A DNA stretch of 64,000 nucleotides from Candidatus Latescibacterota bacterium (GTDB taxonomy: Bacteria; Latescibacterota; UBA2968; UBA8231). The position numbers were made by a program, and so were the translations under genes. Where the stretch lies: the NCBI GenBank assembly GCA_965197905.1, contig CBDAOB010000002.1, positions 1 to 64,000 of the forward strand. Reading direction: 5' to 3'. Positions 439-37,995 of this stretch are shown here, piece after piece. The notes beneath the pieces were generated by a model, which worked only from the letters and a program-made list of their open reading frames with translations, did not search any database and was not told the origin of the DNA. Positions within the stretch are counted from its first letter, which is position 1. Each line of letters opens with the position of its first letter.

Positions 439-2579
439 GTGCGCCACGAGGCGCCAGAGAACCGGGTGGGATGCAAGGACCCACCAACGGGCTGTCGCAG
501 CAGCCCGTTGAAGCTGGAGGCAGCCTGACCCTGGGAGCGCAGGGGAAGGTGGAAGCAGCCTCGACAACGACAGAGTGGAGTGGCACCTCCAGACACTCCA
601 CGTCTGGCAAGCAAGACGGAATGGTGTAACCCGAAGTGAACCAGTGATGGAACCCCCTTTAGCGGCCCGCCAACCCAAACCTGGTGGATAAGGGTTGGTA
701 CGCAACGCACGTGGTCGGATATATGACCGACTGCGACTCTGGGGAGGTGTGATACCCACCGAAGCAGAGGCCTTGGAGAATGCCTGCGGCGTACCCAAGG
801 CGAAGTTGCAGGGGAAAAGCTGGGCACCTCCCCCGTCAAACGGTTCATGGTGAACGTGGGAACCGAGCCGAGTCCGACCGTTATCGGGGCAGCGCGCTGT
901 CCGCTGTGGGGCTTGGCAAGGGACGGAGCCTCTGTAGTAGTCCGCGAGCGGGAAAGCCGCTTACATGGCGAAGGGAGGCAGCAAGTTGCGCAGTGGGGTA
1001 CTGGAAAAACAGGAGGACGCCGGTGAATGCCAGCGCTTCGTGGCCCGAGGCAGAACAAGCCCGTAATCGAGTACTGGAAATCCAGACCGAACTGCACCGT
1101 TGGGCTGTAGAGGATCGAAGCAAGTGCTTCGACGACCTGTTCAACCTGGTGTGTGACCCGGCGTTTTTGAGTGTAGCCTGGCGTCGGGTGCGCAGCAACA
1201 AGGGTGCTCGTTCGGCCGGAGTGGACGGACAAACGGCCTACTCTGTGGAGACGGAACGCGGCGAGGAGGCCTTTCTCGCCGAGGTGCGGGTTGATCTGAA
1301 GACCCGCAGTTTCCGGCCTCTGCCCGTACGCGAGCGGTTGATTCCGAAACCTGGCACAACGAAGAAGCGCCGGCTCGGCATCCCAACCGCTCGGGACCGA
1401 GTGGTCCAAGCCGCACTCAAGCTGGTGCTCGAACCGATCTTCGAAGCGGACTTCAAGCCGTGCTCCTACGGCTTCCGCCCGAATCGGCGGGCTCAGGACG
1501 CCATCGCCGAGATTCATCAATTCTGCTCCCGCTCTTATGAGTGGGTGGTGGAGGGCGATATCCGTGCTTGTTTCGATGAGATTGATCACGCAGCCCTCTT
1601 GGACCGCGTGCGTCGACGTATCGGTGATAAGCATGTTCTGAGGCTTGTAAAAGCGTTCTGCAAGGCCGGTGTCCTCACGGAACAATCGGTGTTGCAAGAA
1701 AGCACTTCGGGCACTCCGCAAGGCGGTATTCTCTCACCGCTGGTGGCAAATATCGCCTTATCCGTCCTCGACGATTATTTCACTGAGGTCTGGAGAAAGG
1801 TGGGCGCTACCTCCAGTGCGCGACAAGCGCATCGGCGAAAGGGGCTACCGACTTGTCGGCTTGTCCGTTACGCTGACGATTTCGTGCTGCTGGTGGCGGG
1901 CACCGAAGCTGCAGCGTATGACCTGCGCGACCAAGCGGGGGTGACTCTCACCCCCATGGGTCTGCACCTGTCGGAGACGAAGACCGCCATCACGCACATC
2001 AGCCGTGGCTTCGATTTCCTGGGTTTTCGCATTCAGAAGCGACGGAAACCGGGCCCGGTTGGCGCACGCATCTATACGTGGCCAAGAAAGGAATCTCTGG
2101 CCCGGTTGAAGAGCACGGTGCGCGCAGTCACGAGAACGGGTCGGCAGAGGCCGTTGAAGAGCCTTCTGCGCCAACTCAATCCGGTGTTGCGGGGGTGGGC
2201 CAACTACTTTCAGTACGGGGTGTCGAAGGCCACTTTCAACTACGTGCGGGGCTTCACTTGGCGCCGCGTAGTGCATTGGCTGCGCCGCAAGCACCCGCGC
2301 TTTAATTGGAGGAAGCTGAAACGCCGCTACCTGCCAGGATGGTGGCCCACCGAGGACGGGATTGCTCTTTACAACGTCGGCGAAGTAGCAGTGACTCGTT
2401 ACCGCTATCGATCGGCGCGGATCCCTTCTCCCTGGCCTGCGACAACCGGATGAGACTCTGCGGTCACACGGCACCTTGTGGAGAGCCGGATGCGTGGTAA
2501 CGCGCACGTCCGGTTCGGAGGGCGGGCCGGAGAAACCCACATCACGCGTGTGGCGCAGGGCGCTCCGGTCCGACCCTAC
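439..2579 (+). mobile_element. Group II intron, RT-encoding, 2141 nt
   Basis: 5' GTGCG at 439; domain V GAGCCGGATGCGTGGTAACGCGCACGTCCGGTTC near 2481-2516; 3' end CCGACCCTAC at 2579; removal restores GAC GGG ATC|TAC GTC AAA (DGI|YVK) in frame. Confidence 0.95.
1023..2453 (+). CDS. ltrA: Group II intron reverse transcriptase/maturase, no evident HNH endonuclease domain
   Basis: AGVDG, LGIPTARDR, SYGFRP, GTPQGGILSP, RYADDF, FDFLGF, domain X LRGWANYF; GTG start at 1023 after AGGAGG. Confidence 0.95.
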   Translation: MNASASWPEAEQARNRVLEIQTELHRWAVEDRSKCFDDLFNLVCDPAFLSVAWRRVRSNKGARSAGVDGQTAYSVETERGEEAFLAEVRVDLKTRSFRPLPVRERLIPKPGTTKKRRLGIPTARDRVVQAALKLVLEPIFEADFKPCSYGFRPNRRAQDAIAEIHQFCSRSYEWVVEGDIRACFDEIDHAALLDRVRRRIGDKHVLRLVKAFCKAGVLTEQSVLQESTSGTPQGGILSPLVANIALSVLDDYFTEVWRKVGATSSARQAHRRKGLPTCRLVRYADDFVLLVAGTEAAAYDLRDQAGVTLTPMGLHLSETKTAITHISRGFDFLGFRIQKRRKPGPVGARIYTWPRKESLARLKSTVRAVTRTGRQRPLKSLLRQLNPVLRGWANYFQYGVSKATFNYVRGFTWRRVVHWLRRKHPRFNWRKLKRRYLPGWWPTEDGIALYNVGEVAVTRYRYRSARIPSPWPATTG

Positions 2580-3521: not shown

Positions 3522-5189
3522 CTACTCCATCTTCTTCGCCGGCATCTCCTTGCCTCCCTGGAAGAGGGTCAGGCCCATTACTAGGCCCGCGTTATCCAAT
3601 TGGAACTCGATCTGAGCATCTACAACCCTGTAGACGAAGCGCGTCTCGGATTCGGGATAGATTGGAATCGCTGGTTGCCCAGTGGCCTGCGCCATCAGCT
3701 GTCCGGTTTCATTCGTAATCGATATCACGAATCCCGGTAGCAGTTCGTATTTCCCGACGTACCGGTCCAGAATCTCGGGAGCCAACTGCATACTCTTTTC
3801 GTCGGGCATTATCGCCCCGCGTTGCATGGCCTTAACGTCCTGGCCGCCCTGGTGCAGCACGAGATGGGTCACCTGGCCCTTCTCATCTTTCCCGAACGAG
3901 ATCTGCGCGTCTACGATTTTGGAGAAGAATTCGGTTTCAGCTTCAGCGAATATCAGGGATTTTGGTTGCCCCGTTGCCTGCAGGTAAAGCCCTTCCGGCT
4001 CGTGCGTTACGGTGAGCACAAAGGTAGGCACGACTTCGTACTCCCCGACATAGGACTCGTATATCTCCGCGCCCAGAGCAATCTCCTTCCGCTCCTTGGG
4101 CAGCTCCAGCTTTGCTATCTCGAATGCCGGATTGATCAGGTGCCGGCCGATGTCGTCGATATCGTTTGCCGAGTTGGATAGCACCACGACCCCGAGCCCG
4201 GTCTTCCGGTCCCAACCGACGAAGCTGTGATACCCGCCTGTCTTACCGTTGTGCCACACGATCTCCGATTCGTGCTTCTTGTGGGTGAGCCAGCCGAAGC
4301 CTATCTCCATTTCCGGTCTTCCAGCCGGCAATCGTGCAGAGTGGGCTGCATCCATTGCGTCCCGGAAATCGGTCTCCACCAACGCCATATTCGCGGCCAG
4401 AAACCGAAGCATGTCTTCCGTGGTAGAACGGATCGCTCCTGCCCCGGCGAACGTCGGGACATCCCAGTTCGACGTCGGCTGCCTCATCGCCGTGTGACCG
4501 GTTGCCATTCGCTTGTGCAGATCTGGAGTCAGATGGATCACGGTGCTCTCCATCCCCAGAGGTCCGCAGATGCGAGTTCGCACAAGGGTCTCATAGTCTA
4601 CGCCCGCGTTCCGTGCCAGTACGTGTCCCAGCAGTCCGACGCCCAGATTGGAATACTCGAACGCTTCCCCGACTGGTCTGGTCAGGGAGTAGCTGGACAG
4701 GAACTCGTACATGTTCTCCACAGTGTAGTCGGCGTAGGGATTCTGGGGATTCGTAGGTTTGAAGTTGGTCGGCATCCGTGGGAGGCCCGACCGGTGTGTC
4801 GCCAGGTCAAGGGGTGTGATCTCCTTCCCGTCTTTGGAGGGAACCGTCACGGATTCCGGGAGGAATCTCGAGACCGGGTCCTCGAGACGGAGTTCGCCAC
4901 GCTTCACTGCATCCGCCAGCAGCGTCCCCGTGAAGACCTTGCTCACCGAGCCGATCTCGAACACGGTGTTCGCCCCTACTTCCGTATCGCCCTTCAAGTC
5001 TGTCTTGCCGTAGGCGACGACCTTGCGTCCTGTGCTGTCTACGATCCCGACACTCTTCTTGTAGAGGTCTATACGGTCGCGCAGAATCGTCTCGATGGAG
5101 TCATCGGAGGGCATTCCCTCAGCCGACGCTGTGTGTGCCGACATCGCCAAGGCCACCGCCAACGCTAGGTATTTGCATAGGGCTCTCAT
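3522..5189 (-). CDS. Serine hydrolase (beta-lactamase/AmpC-like fold) with two C-terminal DUF3471-like repeats, signal peptide
   Basis: FEIGSVSK (SxxK), YSN, WHNGKTGG; repeated YVGxYE...L..QATGQP. Confidence 0.85.
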   Translation of the reverse strand: MRALCKYLALAVALAMSAHTASAEGMPSDDSIETILRDRIDLYKKSVGIVDSTGRKVVAYGKTDLKGDTEVGANTVFEIGSVSKVFTGTLLADAVKRGELRLEDPVSRFLPESVTVPSKDGKEITPLDLATHRSGLPRMPTNFKPTNPQNPYADYTVENMYEFLSSYSLTRPVGEAFEYSNLGVGLLGHVLARNAGVDYETLVRTRICGPLGMESTVIHLTPDLHKRMATGHTAMRQPTSNWDVPTFAGAGAIRSTTEDMLRFLAANMALVETDFRDAMDAAHSARLPAGRPEMEIGFGWLTHKKHESEIVWHNGKTGGYHSFVGWDRKTGLGVVVLSNSANDIDDIGRHLINPAFEIAKLELPKERKEIALGAEIYESYVGEYEVVPTFVLTVTHEPEGLYLQATGQPKSLIFAEAETEFFSKIVDAQISFGKDEKGQVTHLVLHQGGQDVKAMQRGAIMPDEKSMQLAPEILDRYVGKYELLPGFVISITNETGQLMAQATGQPAIPIYPESETRFVYRVVDAQIEFQLDNAGLVMGLTLFQGGKEMPAKKME

Positions 5190-5230: not shown

Positions 5231-5320
5231 CTATAACGTTTCACCGATTGCCGAACCTGCGAAGCAGGTTGCCGAAGGCCAAGGCGCGCATGCGCCGAAG
5301 CGGCAAACGAGTTGTTATAC
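5231..5320 (-). other. attC site (family A)
   Basis: CTATAAC...TTGCCG...CGGCAA...GTTATAC with three internal hairpins. Confidence 0.9.
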
Positions 5321-6659: not shown

Positions 6660-7494
6660 GCATAACGTCTCGCGGGTTTGCGAACCGCGAAGCGGTTGCC
6701 GAAGGCCAAGGCGCGTAGCGACGCAGGTAGGGTCGAGAACTGGCGCGCCAGCCTTAGGGTTCGGTGGGTTCCCCATGGCTTTCGCCATAGCCCTCAGTCC
6801 GACTCCCATCGCTACGTTTCCAGTTCCCGCCGCCTCAAACCGGACGTGCGGATCTCCCGCATCCGGCTTCCCGACGAACGTCACATCCAGGCACACGCCA
6901 CAAGGACTTCACCTGGTAGTCAAGCTGCTTCCGATGCATACTAGTCTTACTGCTGGAGGCAATAGGCTCACGCCACTCTCCAACCCTCTGCACTTCCGCA
7001 GCATGTCCGAAGTCAGGCCCCTTCCCTCCACCGGAGTTACCCGGCTTCCTCGGTACTACGCGCCTGTCCGCCACCTCATCCAGCCCAGTCTGGCCCTCGC
7101 GGGTTACCGGTTGGAGGCACTCGCTGCTTCCACCGGATGAGGCTTCCCGTGTTGCGCCACATCTCCTCTTACACACATGCTGTCGCCACTACCCCGGCGG
7201 AACAGCTGGGTGCGCTTGTCGCTCGACTTCCCCAGCTGCAGCGGCCTTCCCTGGTTTACGGGCAGGTCGGCTTCCGCATTACACTTTTCGAGGCCTGCTC
7301 AGCGTTTACTCACGTTACGGCCTGTGTGCTCGCCAAGTCGCCCAAGGCGACCCTCTACACCGGAGGCTTCAGCGGCTTCGTCGCCTCCACCACTGCTCCG
7401 ATTGCTACCGGCTGGAGCGACCCTTGCCGGGTGGGATTCGCACCCACTGAAGATGTGCGCCTTAGCACGGCGCACCGCAAACGGGTTGTTACCC
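6660..7494 (-). other. attC site interrupted by ORF-less intron copy 1
   Basis: GTTTGCG...CAG|intron|CGCAAAC GGGTT GTTACCC. Confidence 0.9.
6727..7475 (-). mobile_element. ORF-less group II intron, copy 1 (749 nt)
   Basis: Minus strand starts GTGCGCCGTG, domain V GAAGCCGGATGCGGGAGATCCGCACGTCCGGTTT (6870-6837), ends CGACCCTAC. Confidence 0.93.
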
Positions 7495-7919: not shown

Positions 7920-8767
7920 GGGTAACGCCTCGCCGGTTTACGAACCCCGAGCTTACCGAGGGGTTGCCCGAAGGGCCCAGGCGGCACAGCCGTCGCAGGT
8001 AGGGTCGAGAACTGGCGCGCCAGCCTTAGGGTTCGGTGGGTTCCCCATGGCTTTCGCCATAGCCCTCAGTCCGACTCCCATCGCTACGTTTCCAGTTCCC
8101 GCCGCCTCAAACCGGACGTGCGGATCTCCCGCATCCGGCTTCCCGACGAACGTCACATCCAGGCACACGCCACAAGGACTTCACCTGGTAGTCAAGCTGC
8201 TTCCGATGCATACTAAGTCTTACTGCTGGAGGCAATAGGCTCACGCCACTCTCCAACCCTCTGCACTTCCGCAGCATGTCCGAAGTCAGGCCCCTTCCCT
8301 CCACCGGAGTTACCCGGCTTCCTCGGTACTACGCGCCTGTCCGCCACCTCATCCAGCCCAGTCTGGCCCTCGCGGGTTACCGGTTGGAGGCACTCGCTGC
8401 TTCCACCGGATGAGGCTTCCCGTGTTGCGCCACATCTCCTCTTACACACATGCTGTCGCCACTACCCCGGCGGAACAGCTGGGTGCGCTTGTCGCTCGAC
8501 TTCCCCAGCTGCAGCGGCCTTCCCTGGTTTACGGGCAGGTCGGCTTCCGCATTACACTTTTCGAGGCCTGCTCAGCGTTTACTCACGTTACGGCCTGTGT
8601 GCTCGCCAAGTCGCCCAAGGCGACCCTCTACACCGGAGGCTTCAGCGGCTTCGTCGCCTCCACCACTGCTCCGATTGCTACCGGCTGGAGCGACCCTTGC
8701 CGGGTGGGATTCGCACCACTGAAGATGTGCGCCTTAGCACGGCGCACCGAAAACCGCTGTGTTACAA
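7920..8767 (-). other. attC site interrupted by intron copy 2
   Basis: GGGTAAC...GGTTTACG...CAG|intron|CGAAAACC...GTTACAA. Confidence 0.88.
7999..8747 (-). mobile_element. ORF-less group II intron, copy 2 (749 nt; one 1-nt insertion and one 1-nt deletion vs others)
   Basis: Same sequence as copy 1 except TACTAAGTCT (~8214) and GCACCACT (~8716). Confidence 0.93.
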
Positions 8768-11349: not shown

Positions 11350-12189
11350 ACATAACGTTTTGCCGGTTTACGAACTCACGAAGTGGGTTGCCGAAGGCCA
11401 AGGCGGCATCGGCGCCGCAGGTAGGGTCGAGAACTGGCGCGCCAGCCTTAGGGTTCGGTGGGTTCCCCATGGCTTTCGCCATAGCCCTCAGTCCGACTCC
11501 CATCGCTACGTTTCCAGTTCCCGCCGCCTCAAACCGGACGTGCGGATCTCCCGCATCCGGCTTCCCGACGAACGTCACATCCAGGCACACGCCACAAGGA
11601 CTTCACCTGGTAGTCAAGCTGCTTCCGATGCATACTAGTCTTACTGCTGGAGGCAATAGGCTCACGCCACTCTCCAACCCTCTGCACTTCCGCAGCATGT
11701 CCGAAGTCAGGCCCCTTCCCTCCACCGGAGTTACCCGGCTTCCTCGGTACTACGCGCCTGTCCGCCACCTCATCCAGCCCAGTCTGGCCCTCGCGGGTTA
11801 CCGGTTGGAGGCACTCGCTGCTTCCACCGGATGAGGCTTCCCGTGTTGCGCCACATCTCCTCTTACACACATGCTGTCGCCACTACCCCGGCGGAACAGC
11901 TGGGTGCGCTTGTCGCTCGACTTCCCCAGCTGCAGCGGCCTTCCCTGGTTTACGGGCAGGTCGGCTTCCGCATTACACTTTTCGAGGCCTGCTCAGCGTT
12001 TACTCACGTTACGGCCTGTGTGCTCGCCAAGTCGCCCAAGGCGACCCTCTACACCGGAGGCTTCAGCGGCTTCGTCGCCTCCACCACTGCTCCGATTGCT
12101 ACCGGCTGGAGCGACCCTTGCCGGGTGGGATTCGCACCCACTGAAGATGTGCGCCTTAGCACGGCGCACCGTGAACAGTGTTGTTACAA
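11350..12189 (-). other. attC site interrupted by intron copy 3
   Basis: ACATAAC...GTTTACG...CAG|intron|CGTGAAC...GTTACAA. Confidence 0.9.
11421..12169 (-). mobile_element. ORF-less group II intron, copy 3 (749 nt)
   Basis: Same sequence and ends as copy 1. Confidence 0.93.
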
Positions 12190-14057: not shown

Positions 14058-14094
14058 ACGCTGTCCCTTCACTTTCGGCTTGTATCTTGAAAAT

Positions 14095-14295
14095 CGACTC
14101 CGTTTGATCACATGATCAGTTACATTGGCGAGTATTTGCTGGGGAGGCCGTTTTCGGTTTGAGGCTATGACCTCGCACGTTAGGTAGGCCCCCCACCTCC
14201 GCTGTTAATACCGAGGAAAACCCGAGACGGTCGAGTCTGTATTCTGCAAGCTCGGCAAGCACGGATAGTGGTGGGAGACCAGCAGCCAATATATC
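14095..14295 (+). ncRNA. Putative bridge RNA of the IS110 element
   Basis: Target loop TTTTCGGTT (14151-59)/ACGTTAG (14177-83); donor loop GAAAACCC (14216-23)/TGCAAG (14245-50); ends approximate. Confidence 0.8.
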
Positions 14296-14302
14296 ACGGG
14301 GG

Positions 14303-15313
14303 GTGAACATGCACCAAGAAAATCTAGTCGGCATTGACGTCAGTGCCGCCACGCTGGACGCCGTGCGCAGAGACCGGCGAGGCCAGTTGCTCAATGCAGC
14401 CTTCAGCAACGATACTAGCGGCCACAAGAAGCTCATCAGCTGGGCTACCAGGCGAGGATCAACGGCCCGCATTTGTATAGAAGCTACCGGTGTTTACAGC
14501 TTTCAGCTAGCTATGGCGCTTCATCAACACCCGAAAACAGAGGTCATGGTCGTCAACCCTCGGGCCATCAAGTCCTTCGGCCAAGCGCTCATGCAACGGG
14601 CCAAAATCGATCTAGTGGACGCCGAAGTAATCCTGGCCTTTGTCGAACGCATGGCCTTTGCATCTTGGCACCCGCCACCCGAAGAGGTCCTGCAGTTACA
14701 GTCACTCTCAAGGCGCATTGAGCAGGTGAAGGTGATGCTTAACCAGGAACTCAACCGTCGTCACGCTTATCAATTCCGTGCTGCTGTGGCAAAGTGGGTG
14801 CTCCAAGACATCGAGGTAAACATCCGGCATCTAAGGCGTCGTATAGCTCGTTTGGAAACGCACGGCCTGGAACTGATCGCAGCCAAACCTGAGCTCCAGG
14901 GCGCTTTTCAACGACTGGTCTCCATCAAAGGCGTAGCAGCTATCAGCGCGATGCGGATTTTGGCTGAACTGCTAACCCTCCCACCTGACCTGAAGCCATC
15001 GCAATGGGTCGCTCAGGCCGGTCTCGATCCGCGTGCAAGAGAGTCAGGGGCTTCCGTCCATGGACGTCGGTTTATCTCAAGGACAGGCAACAAACATCTG
15101 CGCCACGCCCTCTACATGCCCGCACTCGTGGCCTTACGACACGAACCACATGTGAAGGCCTTTTATGAAAAACTATTGGCCGCTGGCAAGAGACCCATGC
15201 AGGCAGTGGTGGCCGTGATGCGAAAATTGCTACGATCTATATGGGGTATGCTGAACTACAATCAGGATTTTGAGGACGAAAGATTCTACGAGATTCACAA
15301 GAAAGCAGCTTGA
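14303..15313 (+). CDS. IS110-family DEDD recombinase
   Basis: VGIDVS, IEATG, AKIDLVDA, SIKGVA, AGLDP...ESG, GNKHLRHALYMPA. Confidence 0.93.
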   Translation: MNMHQENLVGIDVSAATLDAVRRDRRGQLLNAAFSNDTSGHKKLISWATRRGSTARICIEATGVYSFQLAMALHQHPKTEVMVVNPRAIKSFGQALMQRAKIDLVDAEVILAFVERMAFASWHPPPEEVLQLQSLSRRIEQVKVMLNQELNRRHAYQFRAAVAKWVLQDIEVNIRHLRRRIARLETHGLELIAAKPELQGAFQRLVSIKGVAAISAMRILAELLTLPPDLKPSQWVAQAGLDPRARESGASVHGRRFISRTGNKHLRHALYMPALVALRHEPHVKAFYEKLLAAGKRPMQAVVAVMRKLLRSIWGMLNYNQDFEDERFYEIHKKAA

Positions 15314-15326
15314 CGGGGAAGAGAAA

Positions 15327-15418
15327 ACCTAACGTTTCTCCGGTTGCCGAACTCGCGCAGCGAGTTGCCGGAGGCCAAGGCGGCGAAGGCCGCCGTAGCG
15401 GCAAACGTGTTGTTACAT
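15327..15418 (-). other. attC site (family A), R' box split by IS110
   Basis: CTAAC...TTGCCG...CGGCAA...GTTACAT. Confidence 0.88.
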
Positions 15419-19839: not shown

Positions 19840-21444
19840 AGTGCCCTGCGGACTAAACAGACGCAGCGCAGGTGCCACGAGGACTCAAATCACGGTTGCG
19901 CGTAACGGACTGTGCGGCGCTGTTAACGGCAGCGGCCGCGAAGCTAACATTGCCTGCCTTCACCTCTGCGGGTGGCTCCGATTTAGAGAAGCACGACACT
20001 GGTAGGACCCTGTAACCGGGAGCCCGTAGAGTCGGAAGGACTTCGGCCGTTCCATCCCCTCTCAAAACAGGAGCACATTCTATGGCACTCATTGTTGGCA
20101 TCGATCTAGGACGCAAAAGCGCCCACGATGTGAGTATCCTACGGCAGGAAAACGCCGAGCAACTGGGACGCACCTTCCGTTTCTATTCGACGCCAACAGA
20201 TCTTGAAATGTTGTTTACACGTATTGAGGCGGTGCGGCAGGACGAAGAAGCTATCGCTTTTGTCATCGATGCCCCCGGAAAAGCCTGGATTCCTATTACC
20301 GCTGTCCTCAAGAGCCCCGGCTTCCCCGTCTATCGGCCTTCTTCCTACCGCGTGCGCCGATTGCGGCAGGCCGGACATCGAAAAAACAAAACCAACCGCA
20401 TCGATGCATTGACCCTGGCGCGCTGCCTGCTCACCTATCCCCAAGATACGCAGGAAGTCTTCCTCCCCCAAAAAATATCAGCCCAGCTCGACCAGTTGGT
20501 GCGTCAGTGCGATCGCATCGTCGATGCGCAAAGGCGCCGCAAACAGCGTATCCAGGATCTCTGCGAGCAGATCAATCCTTATCTCACCACAGCCGCAAGG
20601 GGGTTTCTGCTCACCGAAGCCGGACGCGCCTTCCTGCGCACCTACCTCGATCCCCGAGGCGCCGTCCGATTAGGCAAAAAACGCTGGGCTCTGTTTCTGC
20701 AAAAACGCTATCGACTCCAACTCGATGAAAACATCCTCGATGCCATATACGCTTCTTGCAAGGACGCCACCGAGCTCTACAAGCCCGTACGCAAGGTGGG
20801 ACTGATGCCCTTCAACGAAGAAATCCTCCAGGAGGAAATGCAGTGGGAAATAGACCAGCTAGAACGTGAGGAAGCGCGCATCCTACTCCTGGAACGCCAG
20901 ATCAAACAATGCAATCAAACGTTAGATCCACAGGAGTCTTTTCTCTCCCTACCTGGCGTCCAGCACACCATCGCGGCAGGACTGCGCACATGCATTGGCG
21001 ACATCGATCGCTTTAATAGCCTCACCAAACATCGAGGCTTTGGAGGCTTATACCCATCCGTGAGTAAAACCGGCAACGACGACTCGGCACCCATGCCGAT
21101 CTCAAAAATGAGCTGCAATCGCTACAAGCGATACCTCTACCTAGCCGCTGAAAACGCCTACAAATAGGACGTTGACTGTGCCGCCTTCTACCACAAGCGA
21201 AGAAGCCGAGGTCATACACACAAACAGGCCGTCTGTGCGGTCGCCAACTCAAAACTCTTACCGCGAATACACCAACTCCTAAAAAAGCTCAAACAAGCAG
21301 AAAACTCGGGCACCCATAGACCCTACTACGTATTCAGAGATCTACAAGGAAATCCAATCAGCAAAACAGAAGCAAAGGCGATCATCACCGCTAAATGGGG
21401 CCACCTCAAATACGGGAAAAAAGGACTTGCAACGGCTTAGAGAA
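19840..21444 (+). mobile_element. IS110-family element abutting an attC R'' core; left end uncertain (19840 or ~19944)
   Basis: Right junction CTTAGAGAA|TGTTAAATGAC; CTTAGAGAA also at 19831-39. Confidence 0.75.
20082..21440 (+). pseudogene. IS110 recombinase with premature TAG at 21165-21167
   Basis: VGIDLG, KTNRIDA, SLPGV, LYLAA; frame continues ...FYHKRRSRGHTHKQAVCAVAN to 21440. Confidence 0.85.
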
Positions 21445-25030: not shown

Positions 25031-25921
25031 TTATCTCTCTTGGTCCCGTCTGAGGTTCTTGATACCGTAAAGGTAGTCCATCATTTTATGCTCAAGTTCT
25101 ATTGGATAGGTGTAATCCAGACTCGAGCCAACGGTCTCCGCCAGCCTCTTGAAAAGCTCAATAGTCTTGAACAAGGCGTTCCAGTTTTGGTCTACGTCTG
25201 CACCTGCATAAGTTGACTCGAGCTCAATCCACGTCGACTCGTCCAGATATCTCCTAAACTTCCTGCCGAAGACACCAGGATTCACGCTCCAACAGTGTTG
25301 GGTGCCAATGTACCACTCAATCATCGGTTGCAGCTTCCTAATCCGCAGGTTTGAATCAAACTCGTACTTCGCATAGAAAAACTCACCTCTCCAAAGGCAC
25401 TTCGCGACGTAGGTGGTGGTCCACCAGAACCTGTGAATAAGCTCCTGGAATTCTTCCGCCGTTGGTTTTTCAGTGAAGTAGGCTTGATTTGTGGCCGGAT
25501 CTGGATCAACTACCTCGTGATCCTTGTCTACCAAAACCCGGTATCCGACCTCGTAGTGAGGCAGCAGGGGCTTTTGATTCAGTCGTTTCATGGAGGCAAC
25601 TGTAGAGATCTGGCAGTCCACCTTCAACCCATCGTCGAAAATCGCGAGCCGCGTCACCCAACCATCCGCCTCACTCGGCTTGTACGGCCAGACGATCAAG
25701 ACCGATCCGAAAACCTCGAGCCACTTGTCCCCCTCCAAGATCGGATCAAGACCTCGAACGTATAGTTCGATGTCATAGTCTGACAGCGCATCAGTCGAAG
25801 AATCGTTCCTGGCATGTGAACTAGTGAGGACTGCACCTCGGACCTCGTCAGTTCTGGTTGCCCAACTCTCGAAGTCAGCAAGGAATGACTCCTTCCGGGC
25901 TCTATAGGTCGCGTTCAACAT
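25031..25921 (-). CDS. Aminoglycoside 6-adenylyltransferase (ANT(6)/AadK-like) family protein
   Basis: TSSHAR...DALSDYDIELYV, YRVLVDKD, KPT.EEF...FWW..TYVAKCLWRGE. Confidence 0.85.
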   Translation of the reverse strand: MLNATYRARKESFLADFESWATRTDEVRGAVLTSSHARNDSSTDALSDYDIELYVRGLDPILEGDKWLEVFGSVLIVWPYKPSEADGWVTRLAIFDDGLKVDCQISTVASMKRLNQKPLLPHYEVGYRVLVDKDHEVVDPDPATNQAYFTEKPTAEEFQELIHRFWWTTTYVAKCLWRGEFFYAKYEFDSNLRIRKLQPMIEWYIGTQHCWSVNPGVFGRKFRRYLDESTWIELESTYAGADVDQNWNALFKTIELFKRLAETVGSSLDYTYPIELEHKMMDYLYGIKNLRRDQER

Positions 25922-26026: not shown

Positions 26027-26313
26027 GTTGGCGTTGCACAATATAGCAAACCGCGCGAGCGGGGTTGGGGTGGTGAGGGGCCATGGCCGCACAGGGGAGG
26101 AGCGGGGTCTTGAACGAAAAGGCCACAACGGGGAGCGGAAGGGCGGTGAGTCATCAATGAGCACCTCGACACAGGCTCCACTCCGGGGGCACATCGGCCA
26201 TGGAAGAGTCGACCGAAGAGATGTCTTTTATGTATCTGTCTTCGAACGGCGGTCGAAATTCTTCACTCAATTGGCCGATTTTCGCCACTCCAATATTTTC
26301 GCCTTCAGATAAC
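26020..26313. other. Gene-less cassette 2
   Basis: GTTATCTG / CAGATAAC complementary ends; homologous to 18943-19235. Confidence 0.8.
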
Positions 26314-26378
26314 TTGCTCTCGCCGATTGCCGAACTCGCGAAGCGGTTGCCGCAGGCCAAGACTTCCTATAACCGATG

Positions 26379-27608
26379 TCAAGCGAAAACGGGTTCGGTT
26401 GGTTCTTGCCGTGCGATGTTCAGCAGGTGATAGGTTTCATCGTACGGGACCGCGTCGCGCCACATGAAGTAAATAATCTTAAGCCATTTCGATCCCAACG
26501 CCCTTAAGGCCCGTTGGTGACTCCGTCCTAGGTTTCGTTGTCGTTCATAGTAGGCTCTTGCCCATTCGCTGCTTCTCAAGGAAATCATGGCTATCCAGTT
26601 TATGGCATAGCGCATCACCTTGTTGCAGGCATAGCGAAACTGGACCCGTTCATATTTGCCGCTTTTCTGCGTCACCGGCGTGGTGCCCGCCTGCGCTTGC
26701 AGATGGCGGAACGAGGTCCAACGTTCAGGCGCATCGCCTAATTCAGCCAAAAGAGTCGGAAGGATCGTTCCCGACTTCCCGCCGGGCAAACTCATGGCCC
26801 ATTGGGAAGATGGCAGATCTGCAAATGCTTGTTCGATTTCCCGTTTATACGTTTTGATGGCGGCAGCCTGAGTCTGTAATTGTGCCACCAACACCAGCAT
26901 CATTCTCGACCGAGCCCGCACAACGTGATGAGGAATGGCAATCTGCGGGCTATGGAGAAGGTCCCATAGCTGGGCCGTTCGTGCCGCATTCAAGCGGTGG
27001 CTCCGAGCAAAGTCCTGCCACTGTTGTTTGGTCAGCCGTTTCAGCTCACCAGGCGTAGGATACGCCTGCAGGAAATCAAGGGCCGTCCCACTGGCCATTT
27101 CCTCATAGGCCTCGAGGGAGCGGGGATAATATTCTTTCAACGTAGCCTTTAGTTGATTGATCCATCGCGTCTGCTGACGTACCAACTTTTGATAGTCTCG
27201 TGTCAGCATTTTCAGCTCGGCAGCTGCCGACGAGTTGGGCGTTAGCGGATGAAGATGGTTATGGTCTGTGCGGAGAAATTCCGCCAATACACACGCATCA
27301 AACGGATCGCTCTTAGACCGACTCACCCGGAAGCGATCTCGAGCCCGATCCAAGGCCTTGGGATTGATCGGATAAACCAAAACATCGTGATCTAACAAGA
27401 AGTCGATCATCCGTCCCTCGGGTTTCTCAATGGCAGCCCACAACAAAATCCCCTCAGCTCGACACTCGTATAACCACCGGCCGAATTCACTTAGGCTTTC
27501 CGACGTGTTACTTATCACCCGCTGAGTAATCCGCTTGCCGTTGTCCTCAACGACACAAACATCATGCGTCTGGTCGGACCAATCTACTCCCAAAATGTAG
27601 TGCTGCAT
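26379..27608 (-). CDS. IS110-family DEDD recombinase
   Basis: LGVDWS, AIEKP, SKSDPFDA, SLPG, AGTTPVTQKSGK. Confidence 0.93.
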   Translation of the reverse strand: MQHYILGVDWSDQTHDVCVVEDNGKRITQRVISNTSESLSEFGRWLYECRAEGILLWAAIEKPEGRMIDFLLDHDVLVYPINPKALDRARDRFRVSRSKSDPFDACVLAEFLRTDHNHLHPLTPNSSAAAELKMLTRDYQKLVRQQTRWINQLKATLKEYYPRSLEAYEEMASGTALDFLQAYPTPGELKRLTKQQWQDFARSHRLNAARTAQLWDLLHSPQIAIPHHVVRARSRMMLVLVAQLQTQAAAIKTYKREIEQAFADLPSSQWAMSLPGGKSGTILPTLLAELGDAPERWTSFRHLQAQAGTTPVTQKSGKYERVQFRYACNKVMRYAINWIAMISLRSSEWARAYYERQRNLGRSHQRALRALGSKWLKIIYFMWRDAVPYDETYHLLNIARQEPTEPVFA

Positions 27609-27624
27609 CCAAATCTCCTTCTTG

Positions 27625-27845
27625 CTTTCATCAAGAAGCTCGACCGGAAAGGTTGGCCTTATATCGGTCCTCGGAGGGACGACTTCCTATTGAACCTTTC
27701 AACTCCGATCTCAATGCCGGGCGGGACAGTCTTGGCCAGATCCTCAGCGGGATGAGGCGCGAATGGTCCTCTACCCAGAATGCTCCTCAAATAGATTCAG
27801 TGTCGATTCAACGATACTGAATCGCAAGAAACATTTCCCCTTGCG
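27625..27845 (-). ncRNA. Putative bridge RNA
   Basis: Minus strand: target guides CGCGCCT (27761-55)/GGCCAAG (27737-31); donor guides ATAGGAAGTC (27690-81)/GATATAAG (27665-58); ends approximate. Confidence 0.85.
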
Positions 27846-27874
27846 GGTGATATAAGGCGCGGCTAGCGCCGCAG

Positions 27875-28623
27875 GTAGGGTCGAGAACTGGCGCGCCAGC
27901 CTTAGGGTTCGGTGGGTTCCCCATGGCTTTCGCCATAGCCCTCAGTCCGACTCCCATCGCTACGTTTCCAGTTCCCGCCGCCTCAAACCGGACGTGCGGA
28001 TCTCCCGCATCCGGCTTCCCGACGAACGTCACATCCAGGCACACGCCACAAGGACTTCACCTGGTAGTCAAGCTGCTTCCGATGCATACTAGTCTTACTG
28101 CTGGAGGCAATAGGCTCACGCCACTCTCCAACCCTCTGCACTTCCGCAGCATGTCCGAAGTCAGGCCCCTTCCCTCCACCGGAGTTACCCGGCTTCCTCG
28201 GTACTACGCGCCTGTCCGCCACCTCATCCAGCCCAGTCTGGCCCTCGCGGGTTACCGGTTGGAGGCACTCGCTGCTTCCACCGGATGAGGCTTCCCGTGT
28301 TGCGCCACATCTCCTCTTACACACATGCTGTCGCCACTACCCCGGCGGAACAGCTGGGTGCGCTTGTCGCTCGACTTCCCCAGCTGCAGCGGCCTTCCCT
28401 GGTTTACGGGCAGGTCGGCTTCCGCATTACACTTTTCGAGGCCTGCTCAGCGTTTACTCACGTTACGGCCTGTGTGCTCGCCAAGTCGCCCAAGGCGACC
28501 CTCTACACCGGAGGCTTCAGCGGCTTCGTCGCCTCCACCACTGCTCCGATTGCTACCGGCTGGAGCGACCCTTGCCGGGTGGGATTCGCACCCACTGAAG
28601 ATGTGCGCCTTAGCACGGCGCAC
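27875..28623 (-). mobile_element. ORF-less group II intron, copy 4 (749 nt)
   Basis: Same sequence and ends as copy 1. Confidence 0.93.
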
Positions 28624-28653
28624 CGAAAACCGGGTGTTATGAGAAGTGTCTAC

Positions 28654-29610
28654 CTACGCAAATTGCTTGTAGTCTATGTCTACAAGTGCCACTTCATTCT
28701 CGATAGCATTTTGATACCGGTTGAGAAGAATTCGTTTATGTAAAGAGATCTGACTCATGTCCCACTCTAAGAAAGCGTCGATGAACGACATCACCTCACG
28801 CAGTTTGACAAAGATTGGTAGTCTTTCAATCCACACAGAGGAGAGATCTCGGTACTCCGCGTAACCTTCTAGGAGACTCCCAACGAATGCCTCGGCGTAC
28901 CCATTGACATCCGTACCATTGAAGGAAATATCTACCGCGAAGTTGATTAGAACTCCAAGATCGTGTGCAAAGAAGTGAAGTTCACATTCATCGGTGTCAA
29001 AAAACGTGACTTGGTTGTTGTGTACGTGGATGTTGCAAGGTCCGATGTCTCCATGGATGAGACCGTAGCATCCGGCGTCTTCCTGATAGGAGCGTACGAG
29101 ATGGACGACCTCTGAGCACTTGGCCCGAGCGACACTGAACCTTTCGGGAATGCGTTGAACGTCGTAGATGTCTGCTTCATGCCAGTGTGTGCGTTGCAGA
29201 GCTGGGTACTCAATATGGAACTTCTGAGTTGCGCGGTGCATCCTTCCGATCTGCTGCCCAAGTTGCTTGAACAGATTACGATCCCACTCCGCATTCGTGG
29301 GTGGTGCACCTTCCGCCCGCTCTAGACTGACTACCAGAAACTGCTCGCCTCCCGCGCAGATTTCCTCAACTAACTCCCCGTTGACCGAAGGAACGGCTCG
29401 GACGATCCTCACGCCATCGCTTGCCAGGTAATTGATCCACGACACTTCGGTCGTCTGCTCTGCATAACTTGGCTCCTGCAGTACTCTGGCGACAAAATCT
29501 CCTCCGTCGTTCGTGTACGGGTAGAAATACTGATTGAGGCTCCGTATTTGATTGGGTTTCACATCGAATAGCTCTGAAATGCTATCGACGATCTGCTTCT
29601 GCATACTCAA
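28654..29610 (-). CDS. APH/choline-kinase-family phosphotransferase
   Basis: IGRMH, YGLIHGDI...N, FFDTDEC. Confidence 0.85.
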   Translation of the reverse strand: MSMQKQIVDSISELFDVKPNQIRSLNQYFYPYTNDGGDFVARVLQEPSYAEQTTEVSWINYLASDGVRIVRAVPSVNGELVEEICAGGEQFLVVSLERAEGAPPTNAEWDRNLFKQLGQQIGRMHRATQKFHIEYPALQRTHWHEADIYDVQRIPERFSVARAKCSEVVHLVRSYQEDAGCYGLIHGDIGPCNIHVHNNQVTFFDTDECELHFFAHDLGVLINFAVDISFNGTDVNGYAEAFVGSLLEGYAEYRDLSSVWIERLPIFVKLREVMSFIDAFLEWDMSQISLHKRILLNRYQNAIENEVALVDIDYKQFA

Positions 29611-32754: not shown

Positions 32755-32844
32755 GGGTAACGTTATGCCTGTTGCCGAACTCGCGTAGAGAGTTGCCGAC
32801 AGGCCAAGGCGCGTATGCGCCGCAGCGGCAACAGGTTGTTAAAG
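32755..32844 (-). other. attC site (family A)
   Basis: GGGTAAC...GTTGCCG...CGGCAAC...GTTAAAG. Confidence 0.9.
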
Positions 32845-32872: not shown

Positions 32873-33748
32873 CTATCCCATTTCGCCGAGAGCGAACAAG
32901 GTAAGAGCAATCCCAAGATACCGGTCGCGAGTTTTGGCGTCTCTGGTCGTCCCAGTCGGCCAAAAACACGAATAGGCGGCGTAATCCGCTATTCTCGTAG
33001 AATCCACCTTCTTGTTCGGTCTGCTTGCTGCCGCAGATCTGATCGCTTCAGTGAAATATTCGTCACTCCATTCGCCGTATTTGGCTATGCCGCCCAAGAG
33101 ATCGCCGACATCTCTTTCAAATTGTCCCGGACCTATGCTCTCAAAGTCGGTCAGGGTGGTCTTCTCTCCGTCTAGTACGACTTGCCGTGGCGAAAGATCT
33201 CTGTGACACATGTCTGTGTATGCATCGTGGACATGGCTCTCTATGCGCGACAAGATACTTCCGCACTCCCTGGTCAGCGGAGCGAAACGAGCACACGTGT
33301 CGGTAAGCCGTTCAATATCCCGATCTCTAGTGGTCAGACCGTCTCTGATAACTCCGAAGTCGGAGTAATCTTGTTCGGCAAACCGAGTGAGTTCCTGGAT
33401 TGTCTGAAAAACTGCCTGCAACGACTTCGGTGAAACCACATCAAGCACTAGATCCGCAACGCTCTTACTACCACAATCCGACAGAATCAAATACGGAATA
33501 CCGGAAAGCTCTCCGTGAGCAATTATCTTCGCATGGTTTAGCGAGGACCGCTCAATGAGACGATATGCCTCGATTTCTCGGCGTAAACGGTACGGTCTTC
33601 GTGGATTTAGTTTTACGATATAAGTTTTGTTCTCACCGAATGCACGCCAGACAAAGTTGCTGTTCGGCGGCAAATGTTGCGCTTCGACTACACCGGAAAG
33701 GCACTTCGTACAGACGTTATCGACAACTGCCTGGTATTCTTCCAACAT
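32873..33748 (-). CDS. APH-family phosphotransferase
   Basis: YIVKL...RE, CHRDLSPRQV, LTDFES. Confidence 0.75.
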   Translation of the reverse strand: MLEEYQAVVDNVCTKCLSGVVEAQHLPPNSNFVWRAFGENKTYIVKLNPRRPYRLRREIEAYRLIERSSLNHAKIIAHGELSGIPYLILSDCGSKSVADLVLDVVSPKSLQAVFQTIQELTRFAEQDYSDFGVIRDGLTTRDRDIERLTDTCARFAPLTRECGSILSRIESHVHDAYTDMCHRDLSPRQVVLDGEKTTLTDFESIGPGQFERDVGDLLGGIAKYGEWSDEYFTEAIRSAAASRPNKKVDSTRIADYAAYSCFWPTGTTRDAKTRDRYLGIALTLFALGEMG

Positions 33749-33822: not shown

Positions 33823-34718
33823 CTTTAACGTTTTTCGGCTTTACGACGTGGGCCTGATCCCGAATAGGGATTGGCGCGGCGGTTGCCAAAGGCAATCGCT
33901 GTGACAAAAGGCCCGTGTGCCCGTAGGGCCGAGGGGCGAATGCCCCGATGGTAGGGTCGAGAACTGGCGCGCCAGCCTTAGGGTTCGGTGGGTTCCCCAT
34001 GGCTTTCGCCATAGCCCTCAGTCCGACTCCCATCGCTACGTTTCCAGTTCCCGCCGCCTCAAACCGGACGTGCGGATCTCCCGCATCCGGCTTCCCGACG
34101 AACGTCACATCCAGGCACACGCCACAAGGACTTCACCTGGTAGTCAAGCTGCTTCCGATGCATACTAGTCTTACTGCTGGAGGCAATAGGCTCACGCCAC
34201 TCTCCAACCCTCTGCACTTCCGCAGCATGTCCGAAGTCAGGCCCCTTCCCTCCACCGGAGTTACCCGGCTTCCTCGGTACTACGCGCCTGTCCGCCACCT
34301 CATCCAGCCCAGTCTGGCCCTCGCGGGTTACCGGTTGGAGGCACTCGCTGCTTCCACCGGATGAGGCTTCCCGTGTTGCGCCACATCTCCTCTTACACAC
34401 ATGCTGTCGCCACTACCCCGGCGGAACAGCTGGGTGCGCTTGTCGCTCGACTTCCCCAGCTGCAGCGGCCTTCCCTGGTTTACGGGCAGGTCGGCTTCCG
34501 CATTACACTTTTCGAGGCCTGCTCAGCGTTTACTCACGTTACGGCCTGTGTGCTCGCCAAGTCGCCCAAGGCGACCCTCTACACCGGAGGCTTCAGCGGC
34601 TTCGTCGCCTCCACCACTGCTCCGATTGCTACCGGCTGGAGCGACCCTTGCCGGGTGGGATTCGCACCCACTGAAGATGTGCGCCTTAGCACGGCGCACC
34701 GTAAAACCGATGTTATAT
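33823..34718 (-). other. Long (147 bp net) divergent attC interrupted by intron copy 5
   Basis: CTTTAAC...CGGCTTTTACG...four hairpins...GATG|intron|CGTAAAACCG AT GTTATAT. Confidence 0.85.
33951..34699 (-). mobile_element. ORF-less group II intron, copy 5 (749 nt)
   Basis: Same sequence and ends as copy 1. Confidence 0.93.
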
Positions 34719-35467: not shown

Positions 35468-35557
35468 ATATAACGTTACGCCGGTTGCCGAACTCGCGAA
35501 GCGAGTTGCCGTAGGCCAAGGCGCGGAGGCGTCGCAGCGGCAACCGCGCTGTTAGCC
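35468..35557 (-). other. attC site (family A)
   Basis: ATATAAC...GTTAGCC. Confidence 0.9.
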
Positions 35558-37153: not shown

Positions 37154-37995
37154 TCATCTCGTCTCATCGCGATTAGGTAAATCTCCGTCTTTAAGTTTGA
37201 TGTTATCCAGTGGCGACCGAATGCGCCGAATATCTTTCTGCATCACATGGGTATAGACCATCGTCGTCTCCGGTCGCTGTCCAGATCCTCCGCTTTCAGC
37301 CGGACGACTTCGCTGACTCGTAGGCCGGCCGAGTAAGCCACCATGAGCAGGGCTCGGTGCTTGGGGTTTCTCAGAGCGTTGAATATCCGAATCACTTCAT
37401 CACGGCTCAGGACGATGGGCAACTTGCTCTCGCGACGTGGTCGGGGTATCTCCTCCACGATGGCGGGTCTGCGCAACACCCGAAGGAAGTAGAATTTGAT
37501 CGCGCTTACGACTTGATTGATGTAGGCTCGGGAGACCTGCCGCTCATCGATCAGGTAAAGGAGGTATTGGCGAATCTCCGCCTCTTCCACGTGGCGCGGA
37601 TCCTGTTGCAGAAATCGTTGGAAGCGAAGCAGATGATTGCGATAGGACTTCTGCGTGGGCGGACTATAACCTCTGAGTCTGAGTTCCTGGTCTATCGGCT
37701 TGAGGAAGGCCTCTTCTGTGGGCGAAAGTACGGTGCGACGACTCTTCCGAGCTGCCGCGCGGGAATGTGGGTTTCGGATTTGACGTTCCTTGAATAGCTG
37801 CTGCAGACGCTCGATGGTCTCCTCCGTATGCGGTACACTCCAGCACTTCTCCTGAGGATGCCATCGGTAACCTGGTACCTTCTTGATCTTGCTGACCTTG
37901 TCGGGGTGATACGAGAAAGATACTCTGAGCCGTCCGGATGGAGCTTGATCTATTGATGCGCTACGGAATCCACCAGATGTCGAATGGCATGAATC
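37154..37995 (-). pseudogene. intI: Integron integrase pseudogene (internal deletion of most of the catalytic domain, no in-frame start)
   Basis: LRGYSPPTQKSY, AIKFYF, KLPIVLSRDEV, YSAGLRVSE, DLDSDR joined out of frame to ETTMVYTHV...IRSPLD. Confidence 0.88.

Follow-up and report, generated by a model that had tools for sequence, protein, structure and literature searches.

An IS110-group element interrupts one repeat of a gene-cassette array in the 64,000-nt stretch of DNA from a Candidatus Latescibacterota bacterium that was analysed here (the window). The locus raises the question of whether RNA guides programmed for this repeat directed the insertion or whether the element landed there incidentally. 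The array occupies positions 1-37 kb of the window and consists of single minus-strand genes between 85-100-bp imperfect palindromes, which terminate in TAAC and GTTA and lie in one orientation. At its head lies an internally deleted intI fragment (37267-37707); contig C3 carries a complete intI. When intact sites were folded as single-stranded DNA, three hairpins formed inside an enclosing stem, and the CT core used by the element fell in the unpaired linker between two of these hairpins; hairpin folding of the repeats reached z scores of -2.5 to -3.5 on the plus strand. From this anatomy and context we infer that the repeats are attC sites; an Rfam search of the window matched no attC model to them. 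An attC-like profile built on 21 window sites returned 66 hits in the genome at E <= 0.01, with CTTGGCC in 17 and CTTCGC in 35 at the same position.

The intI fragment, extending over 37170-37707 on the minus (cassette) strand, joined the first 148 profile positions to the apparent last ~20 residues, and the full intI lay at C3:204281-205219. Predicted streptomycin adenylyltransferase-like, phosphotransferase-like and beta-lactamase-fold domains were found in the cassettes at 25031-25921, 28654-29610, 32873-33748 and 3522-5189. More attC clusters, comprising both subfamilies, were located at C3:289000-363200 and C1:172000-190100 of the same genome (G000), several of them cut off mid-site.

The element and the site that it invaded are organised as follows.
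26362..27856, minus strand: IS110-group element, 1,495 bp with one CT core counted, delimited from both junctions
26379..27608, minus strand: recombinase ORF of 409 aa, open, with residues D9, E61, D101, D104 and S316
27609..27854, minus strand: left non-coding end with the predicted bridge RNA, assigned from guide matches and the family alignment and presumed to be transcribed
26307..26361, minus strand: 3' part of the invaded attC-like site, from the CT core to GTTATCT
27857..27874, minus strand: central portion of the invaded attC-like site, flanked by the intron and the IS
27875..28623, minus strand: ORF-less group II intron (Rfam RF02003) of ~750 nt with approximate ends, in the same attC ~18 nt upstream of the IS

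The left junction reads CGCGC-CT-TATATC, with its core at 27856-27855, and the right junction reads ATAGGAAGT-CT-TGGCC, with its core at 26361-26360 (both minus strand). The target CGCGC-CTT-GGCC and the donor ending in CTT-ATATC, proposed in the initial annotation, were seen at these two junctions. The span of 26355..27862 given there corresponded to a real element and included a few flanking bases, which were trimmed to 26362-27856. The non-coding region lies upstream of the ORF (248 nt including the core) and the right end follows 17 nt after the stop codon. No subterminal inverted repeats were present, the best inverted match between the 60-nt ends being 7 nt, located 26 and 41 nt inside. 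Both junctions were crossed, at a depth close to that of the flanks (6.8 and 5.6), by contigs of runs X1 and X3 (two samples from two studies, one of which runs may be the source of the assembly), so the element is not a misassembly. In the genome (6.69 Mb, 91% complete) the element was single-copy, with one full-length blastn match and one tblastn match. Mapping of copies and flanks, suggested earlier as a check, yielded this one full copy and, in a second attC-like site, only a 12-nt left-end relic.

Other mobile elements shared the array. Near-identical copies of the ORF-less intron RF02003 were found genome-wide. Five of them were on the minus strand of the window (6725-7477, 7997-8749, 11419-12171, 27873-28625 and 33950-34701), each in an attC-like site, at an identical position and in cassette orientation; this orientation and position differ from those of IIC-attC introns as the available text of PMC7923331 describes them. 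Elsewhere in the genome there were at least 8 further copies, one in tandem with a 91% variant. A group II intron carrying a reverse transcriptase/maturase ORF (RVT_1, GIIM) at 780-2579 (plus strand, opposite to the cassettes) is a possible helper for the ORF-less introns. An IS110 element of IS621-like size (336 aa) at 14079-15330 (plus strand) interrupted the terminal box of an attC at a CT, with guide-like matches upstream as judged by eye and a 92%-identical fragment at C3:308660-308782. A third IS110 at 20082-21439 (plus strand), with one internal TAG stop, differed at 17-20 positions between samples, its adjoining DNA being nearly identical.

The recombinase ORF was intact, as had been noted at first. 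Pfam searches identified PF01548 (DEDD RuvC-like, E 2e-36) and PF02371 (Tnp, catalytic serine, E 5e-10), and D9, E61, D101 and D104 together with S316 of the Tnp domain were invariant in 49 aligned homologues. The protein aligned with the solved structures of ISCro4 (9T56, E 2e-15) and IS621 (8WT6, E 5e-14); a close solved structure was not found for its clade of ~400-aa proteins. It was ~28% identical, over a partial alignment only, to the IS110 at 14303, which agrees with the proposal that the two elements are independent. The best plasmid matches had 33-36% identity, no relatives were found on viral contigs and no close named element was found in a comparison made without ISfinder. Among 167 other genomes of the phylum there was no close relative at E <= 1e-60, a result compatible with horizontal acquisition. 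Single-protein scans of genome and metagenome contigs recovered no relative; an alignment-based scan did retrieve relatives. A 276-residue C-terminal form is on record (P0001), which a frameshift or a contig end could explain.

If the insertion was RNA-guided, the non-coding end should hold segments that read both target and donor. The initial annotation had reported exact matches of 7-10 nt for all four guides and a closing stem, and all of these were recovered at the junctions.
27755..27761, minus strand: left target guide (LTG), 7 nt exact including the CT core, with one more U:G wobble
27731..27737, minus strand: right target guide (RTG), 7 nt complementary to CTTGGCC
27681..27690, minus strand: left donor guide (LDG), 10 nt, of which 9 are conserved and the 10th is variable
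27658..27665, minus strand: right donor guide (RDG), 8 nt
27693-27700/27647-27654, minus strand: closing stem
27729..27730, minus strand: target-loop handshake AC, complementary to the donor GT preceding the core
27656..27657, minus strand: donor-loop handshake GC, complementary to the target GC preceding the core

The guides follow the IS621 order LTG-RTG-LDG-RDG, and the family alignment fixes where in the loops they lie. When the bases of the non-coding region were shuffled 20,000 times, the LTG match was reached in 2.6%, the RTG match in 1.4%, the LDG match in 0.055% and the RDG match in 0.36%; LTG and RTG were matched together in 0.015%. The variable 10th base of the LDG was C in 21 of the 66 elements parsed among the matches listed. 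Both hybrid junctions were matched over 10 nt. Complementarity of the handshake to the non-cognate DNA is the arrangement that promotes strand exchange in IS621, according to the available text of PMC11208158. Among the matches listed, the AC handshake was present in 65 of 66 parsed elements, the query included, and the GC handshake in 61 of 66, and because they are conserved in the clade these dinucleotides add little specific support; on the sequences compared, the GC donor handshake is not specific to the attC target. The RNA region of the query alone folded no better than shuffles (z -1.48). A two-loop structure drawn on an alignment of 40 sequences, picked for distinct guides, paired 96.2% of cells, with double changes at 18 of 30 pairs and none of 500 shuffles scoring as high, figures whose significance is overstated by the kinship among elements. 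In the same 40 sequences the target guides were variable (1.85 and 1.5 bits) and the donor guides conserved (0.29 and 0.31 bits).

The relatives provided a clade-wide view of guides and flanks. The alignment-based scan yielded 101 loci in genomes and 380 in metagenomes, and the best 80 of each set were retained. Of these 160 loci, 146 were near full length, giving 147 with the query; 24 that lacked a loop or an end, or ran into a contig edge, were set aside and 123 were parsed, representing 115 distinct insertions. The RTG equalled the right flank at 7/7 positions in 91 of the 115 and at 6/7 or more in 111, among the matches listed, and this test was not circular because the right junction had been placed from the donor guide alone. 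For the first 66 elements, the non-core matches of the RTG averaged 4.86 of 5, compared with 2.25 (maximum 2.70) in 2,000 permutations, a contrast that kinship again overstates. The left guide matched at 6/7 or more in 83 of the 115 among the matches listed, a count inflated by scoring over three registers. Read from these sequences, the donor loop is conserved across the clade and the target loop varies with the flanks. By eye, and among the matches listed, many relatives lay in palindromic repeats and a few at tRNA-like ends; a large Rokubacteria group among them occupied sites that were left unclassified. L081, L091, L103, L108, L021 and others carried one donor loop at sites that looked by eye like the 3' ends of tRNAs, perhaps the end of an IS, and palindromic repeats of several families.

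The 12-bp motif formed by the two target halves was also found in repeats that hold no copy of the element.
5277..5288, minus strand: perfect 12-mer target, unoccupied, within an intact attC-like site
6704..6715, minus strand: empty perfect 12-mer target in an attC-like site already holding an intron copy
32802..32813, minus strand: perfect 12-mer target, unoccupied, within an intact attC-like site
35514..35525, minus strand: perfect 12-mer target, unoccupied, within an intact attC-like site

These four targets, listed in the initial annotation, proved to be exact 12-mers, all within attC-like repeats. The perfect 12-mer occurred 4 times in the 5,366 bases of attC-like hits, versus 3 times in the other 6.68 Mb of the genome. 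When 16 empty CTTGGCC sites were compared with the left guide, 4 were perfect, 5 had one mismatch and 7 had two. The description of the target as the conserved attC linker held for its right half, CTTGGCC, present in 17 of 66 hits; the left half is a variable hairpin arm. The right guide reads the conserved linker and the left guide reads the variable arm.

Two further observations bear on whether attC targeting is a trait of the lineage. When the sites of the 115 elements were rebuilt, the window attC profile matched those of the query (E 1e-9) and of L101 (E 5e-10), the next best being 3.5, among the matches listed; the profile, built from the window, may miss unlike attC types among the relatives. 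L101 was the closest relative among the matches listed (68% identity) and was placed as sister to the query with a support of 0.99 (FastTree, 109 proteins, midpoint root). It shares the donor and the orientation of the query and is inserted at the homologous attC linker, with the junction inside the profile match. Its right guide, CTTCGCC, differs by one base from that of the query and fits the other attC subfamily (CTTCGC). Its left guide matched 4/7 positions at its own occupied site and matched a second, intact attC (E 2e-15) on its contig, which is itself a cassette array with a hydrolase and, as the next unit, a toxin-antitoxin pair. A rule-based attC test was dropped, since it found none of the 115 elements, missed L101 and recovered just 10 of 21 window controls.

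The second observation was the relic, at C4:1308070 of the genome within an attC-like site (C4:1308031-1308119), where CGCGC-CT is followed by 12 nt of the left end and the attC then resumes. The relic 14-mer was found in the genome solely there and in the element (0.04 expected), a similar 14-mer occurred twice in the 167 other genomes, and the left-end start TATATCAC was carried by 1 of the 115 elements among the matches listed, namely the query. The attC at this site is decayed and weak (E 0.24 genome-wide, 8e-4 in a small search), and the last four bases of the relic could derive from attC. The simplest reading would be an earlier insertion at the same CT, followed by a deletion via 4-nt microhomology. 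The relic site (L182:1032-1120) is solitary and outside arrays, and is followed by a ribosome-binding-like motif and an ORF. No orthologue of the locus was found in two same-genus genomes, which gave short attC-like matches only. Junction patterns in other genomes (2 and 4 matches) were deemed chance, because none lay in attC or beside this recombinase. The proposal of a programmable recombinase specialised on this attC family was thus supported by guide/target covariation and by the sister L101 and the relic at the same attC position. Specialisation on attC rests on three insertion events, those of the query, the relic and L101.

Two hexamers mark the promoter that the circular form would create.
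26377..26382, minus strand: -35 hexamer TTGACA, overlapping the stop codon
27849..27854, minus strand: -10 position TATATC, missing the final T of most relatives

As reported in the initial annotation, TTGACA lies at the right end, 17 nt from TATATC across the junction. Among the matches listed, TTGAC was found 21 nt ahead of the core in 92 of 115 elements, and the -10 hexamer, read in 111, was TATACT in 44, TATATT in 42 and TATATC in 2. The TATATC of the query suggests a weaker junction promoter. On the linear element, which lacks the circle junction, a promoter scan gave no hit, as would be expected. No circle or polymorphic insertion was found among the contig joints listed, and contigs cannot show absence. 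A joint 26361->27864 in run X3 was rejected as an empty allele or excision, because two expected bases were missing and it fits the paralogous attC at 6704. IS621 excises less efficiently than it inserts (available text of PMC13626964), and a single-strand, copy-and-paste excision is reported in the available part of a preprint (10.64898/2026.08.31.748434); either would fit a stable resident copy.

We conclude that the locus very probably holds an autonomous IS110-group bridge recombinase element, from a small sub-lineage whose target guides have been retargeted to the attC linker. Following the IS621 model, the two ends of the element would meet at the CT core in a circular form, bringing TTGACA and the -10 together and allowing the bridge RNA to be transcribed. 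Base pairing would link the donor loop of this RNA to the joined ends, and its target loop to the 12-bp attC motif. A tetramer of the recombinase would cut beside both CT cores via D9/E61/D101/D104 and S316, the handshake bases would favour strand exchange, and insertion would proceed without loss of target bases. The sub-lineage of the query and L101 would have switched its aim to the unpaired linker that separates two of the internal hairpins, the rest of the clade mostly aiming at other repeats, and attC repeats would offer a multi-copy, intergenic landing site. From what is generally known of attC, the 1.5-kb insert between the arms probably stops the split site from folding and recombining.

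Other readings concern the trait itself or the identity of the repeats. The element could be a generalist of hairpin repeats whose guides fit a GC-rich 12-mer by chance, its landing in attC being incidental and no trait of the lineage. By eye, many clade members do aim at tRNA-like ends or palindromic repeats, the genome has three further perfect 12-mers at places other than attC, and the attC profile matched only 2 of the 115 elements among the matches listed. Those two are sisters (0.99), however, the one-base difference between their right guides tracks the attC subfamilies (CTTGGCC in 17 of 66, CTTCGC in 35 of 66), and the sole other trace of the element in the genome likewise lies at this CT of an attC-like site, so we regard an incidental landing as improbable. 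It is a shade more improbable still that the repeats are REP-like and the element an ordinary REP-targeting IS110. Such a reading would draw on the box spacing, non-canonical by eye, and on the 10 of 21 window sites recovered by the rule-based test; it is opposed by repeats lying between single genes in one orientation, with TAAC/GTTA ends and a hairpin fold, by the intI fragment at the array head and the full intI in the genome, and by the toxin-antitoxin pair next in the L101 array. Membership of the known IS1111-attC group seems scarcely credible. The attC target and the DEDD and Tnp domains are common to both (available text of PMC11187229), yet here the non-coding region is upstream rather than downstream and subterminal inverted repeats are absent, and the same text gives 330-350 aa, against 409 aa, and insertion at one end for ISKpn4 and ISPst6, against mid-site.

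A reading that has a real, if somewhat less than even, chance is that this anatomy is right and the element immobile, a fixed and silent copy with an impaired junction promoter or RNA. It concerns activity alone and can hold alongside the retargeted bridge recombinase that we prefer. The copy is single while four perfect and five one-mismatch attC targets are empty, the same site was occupied in two samples with no circle joint among those listed, the -10 is without its last T, and the 276-residue C-terminal form is on record, though a contig end would explain it. Against this, the ORF is open with all catalytic residues kept, the guides and handshake bases are intact, the relic probably marks an earlier insertion, and IS621 itself excises less than it inserts (PMC13626964, available text).

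IS1111-attC elements were reportedly treated by Tetu and Holmes in 2008 and by Post and Hall in 2009. As far as the available text of Siddiquee et al. 2024 (PMC11187229) describes ISKpn4, ISPst6 and ISPa25, they resemble our element in RNA-guided, attC-specific insertion and differ in having a downstream non-coding region, subterminal inverted repeats, 330-350 aa and insertion at one attC end; in our element that region is upstream, the repeats are missing, the protein has 409 aa and the cut falls in the internal linker. In length and layout it fits the IS110 subgroup proper (395-455 aa transposases in the available text of PMC11187229). The closest likeness in anatomy is to IS621, which, in the available text of Durrant et al. 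2024 (PMC11208160) and Hiraizumi et al. 2024 (PMC11208158), has the same upstream non-coding region, CT core, guide order, handshake dinucleotides and DEDD plus serine residues, and a promoter across the right-left junction like the one predicted here. By the same sources the two differ in protein length (409 aa versus about 326), in natural target (attC interior versus enterobacterial REP) and in the right guides, of 7-8 nt here versus an RTG pairing over 4 nt in wild-type IS621; both handshake pairs here complement non-cognate DNA, the state engineered there as 'post-HSB'. The relatives aim at palindromic repeats, like IS621 and the REP-targeting ISPa11 as the available text describes them, and natural guide redirection is described for ISXne4 and ISMch6 in the available text of PMC11187229. 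A partial survey of the literature and the supplements of two papers, without ISfinder, found no IS110-group element at an attC interior, which is not proof of absence. What appears new here is this target for an IS110-group branch, the mechanism having been known since 2024.

A broader and more doubtful proposal, which we offer as a conjecture, is that, separately from the IS1111-attC elements, a distinct lineage of the IS110 group arrived in integrons when its repeat-targeting guides were reprogrammed to the internal attC linker, and then tracked the attC subfamilies by single-base guide changes. One ~95-bp site in this array would serve several RNA-guided parasites, each at its own position: this element, the second IS110 at the attC end and, past the left box, the ORF-less group II intron. 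With the array intI internally deleted, recombinases of this kind could turn attC sites off and on, or mobilise cassettes with no need of the integrase. The element is a clear natural case of bridge-RNA reprogramming, in which the donor loop stays conserved, the target loops are many and a single branch is aimed at integron sites, and its same-clade elements form a ready collection of natural guide-target pairs. The clade, with ~400-aa proteins, a readable 150-nt RNA and 7-nt right guides, is a source of bridge recombinases whose donor, target and RNA are known. Altogether, these results suggest that integrons have been colonised more than once, at different positions, by RNA-guided recombinases, a point relevant to the freezing or rearrangement of cassette arrays.
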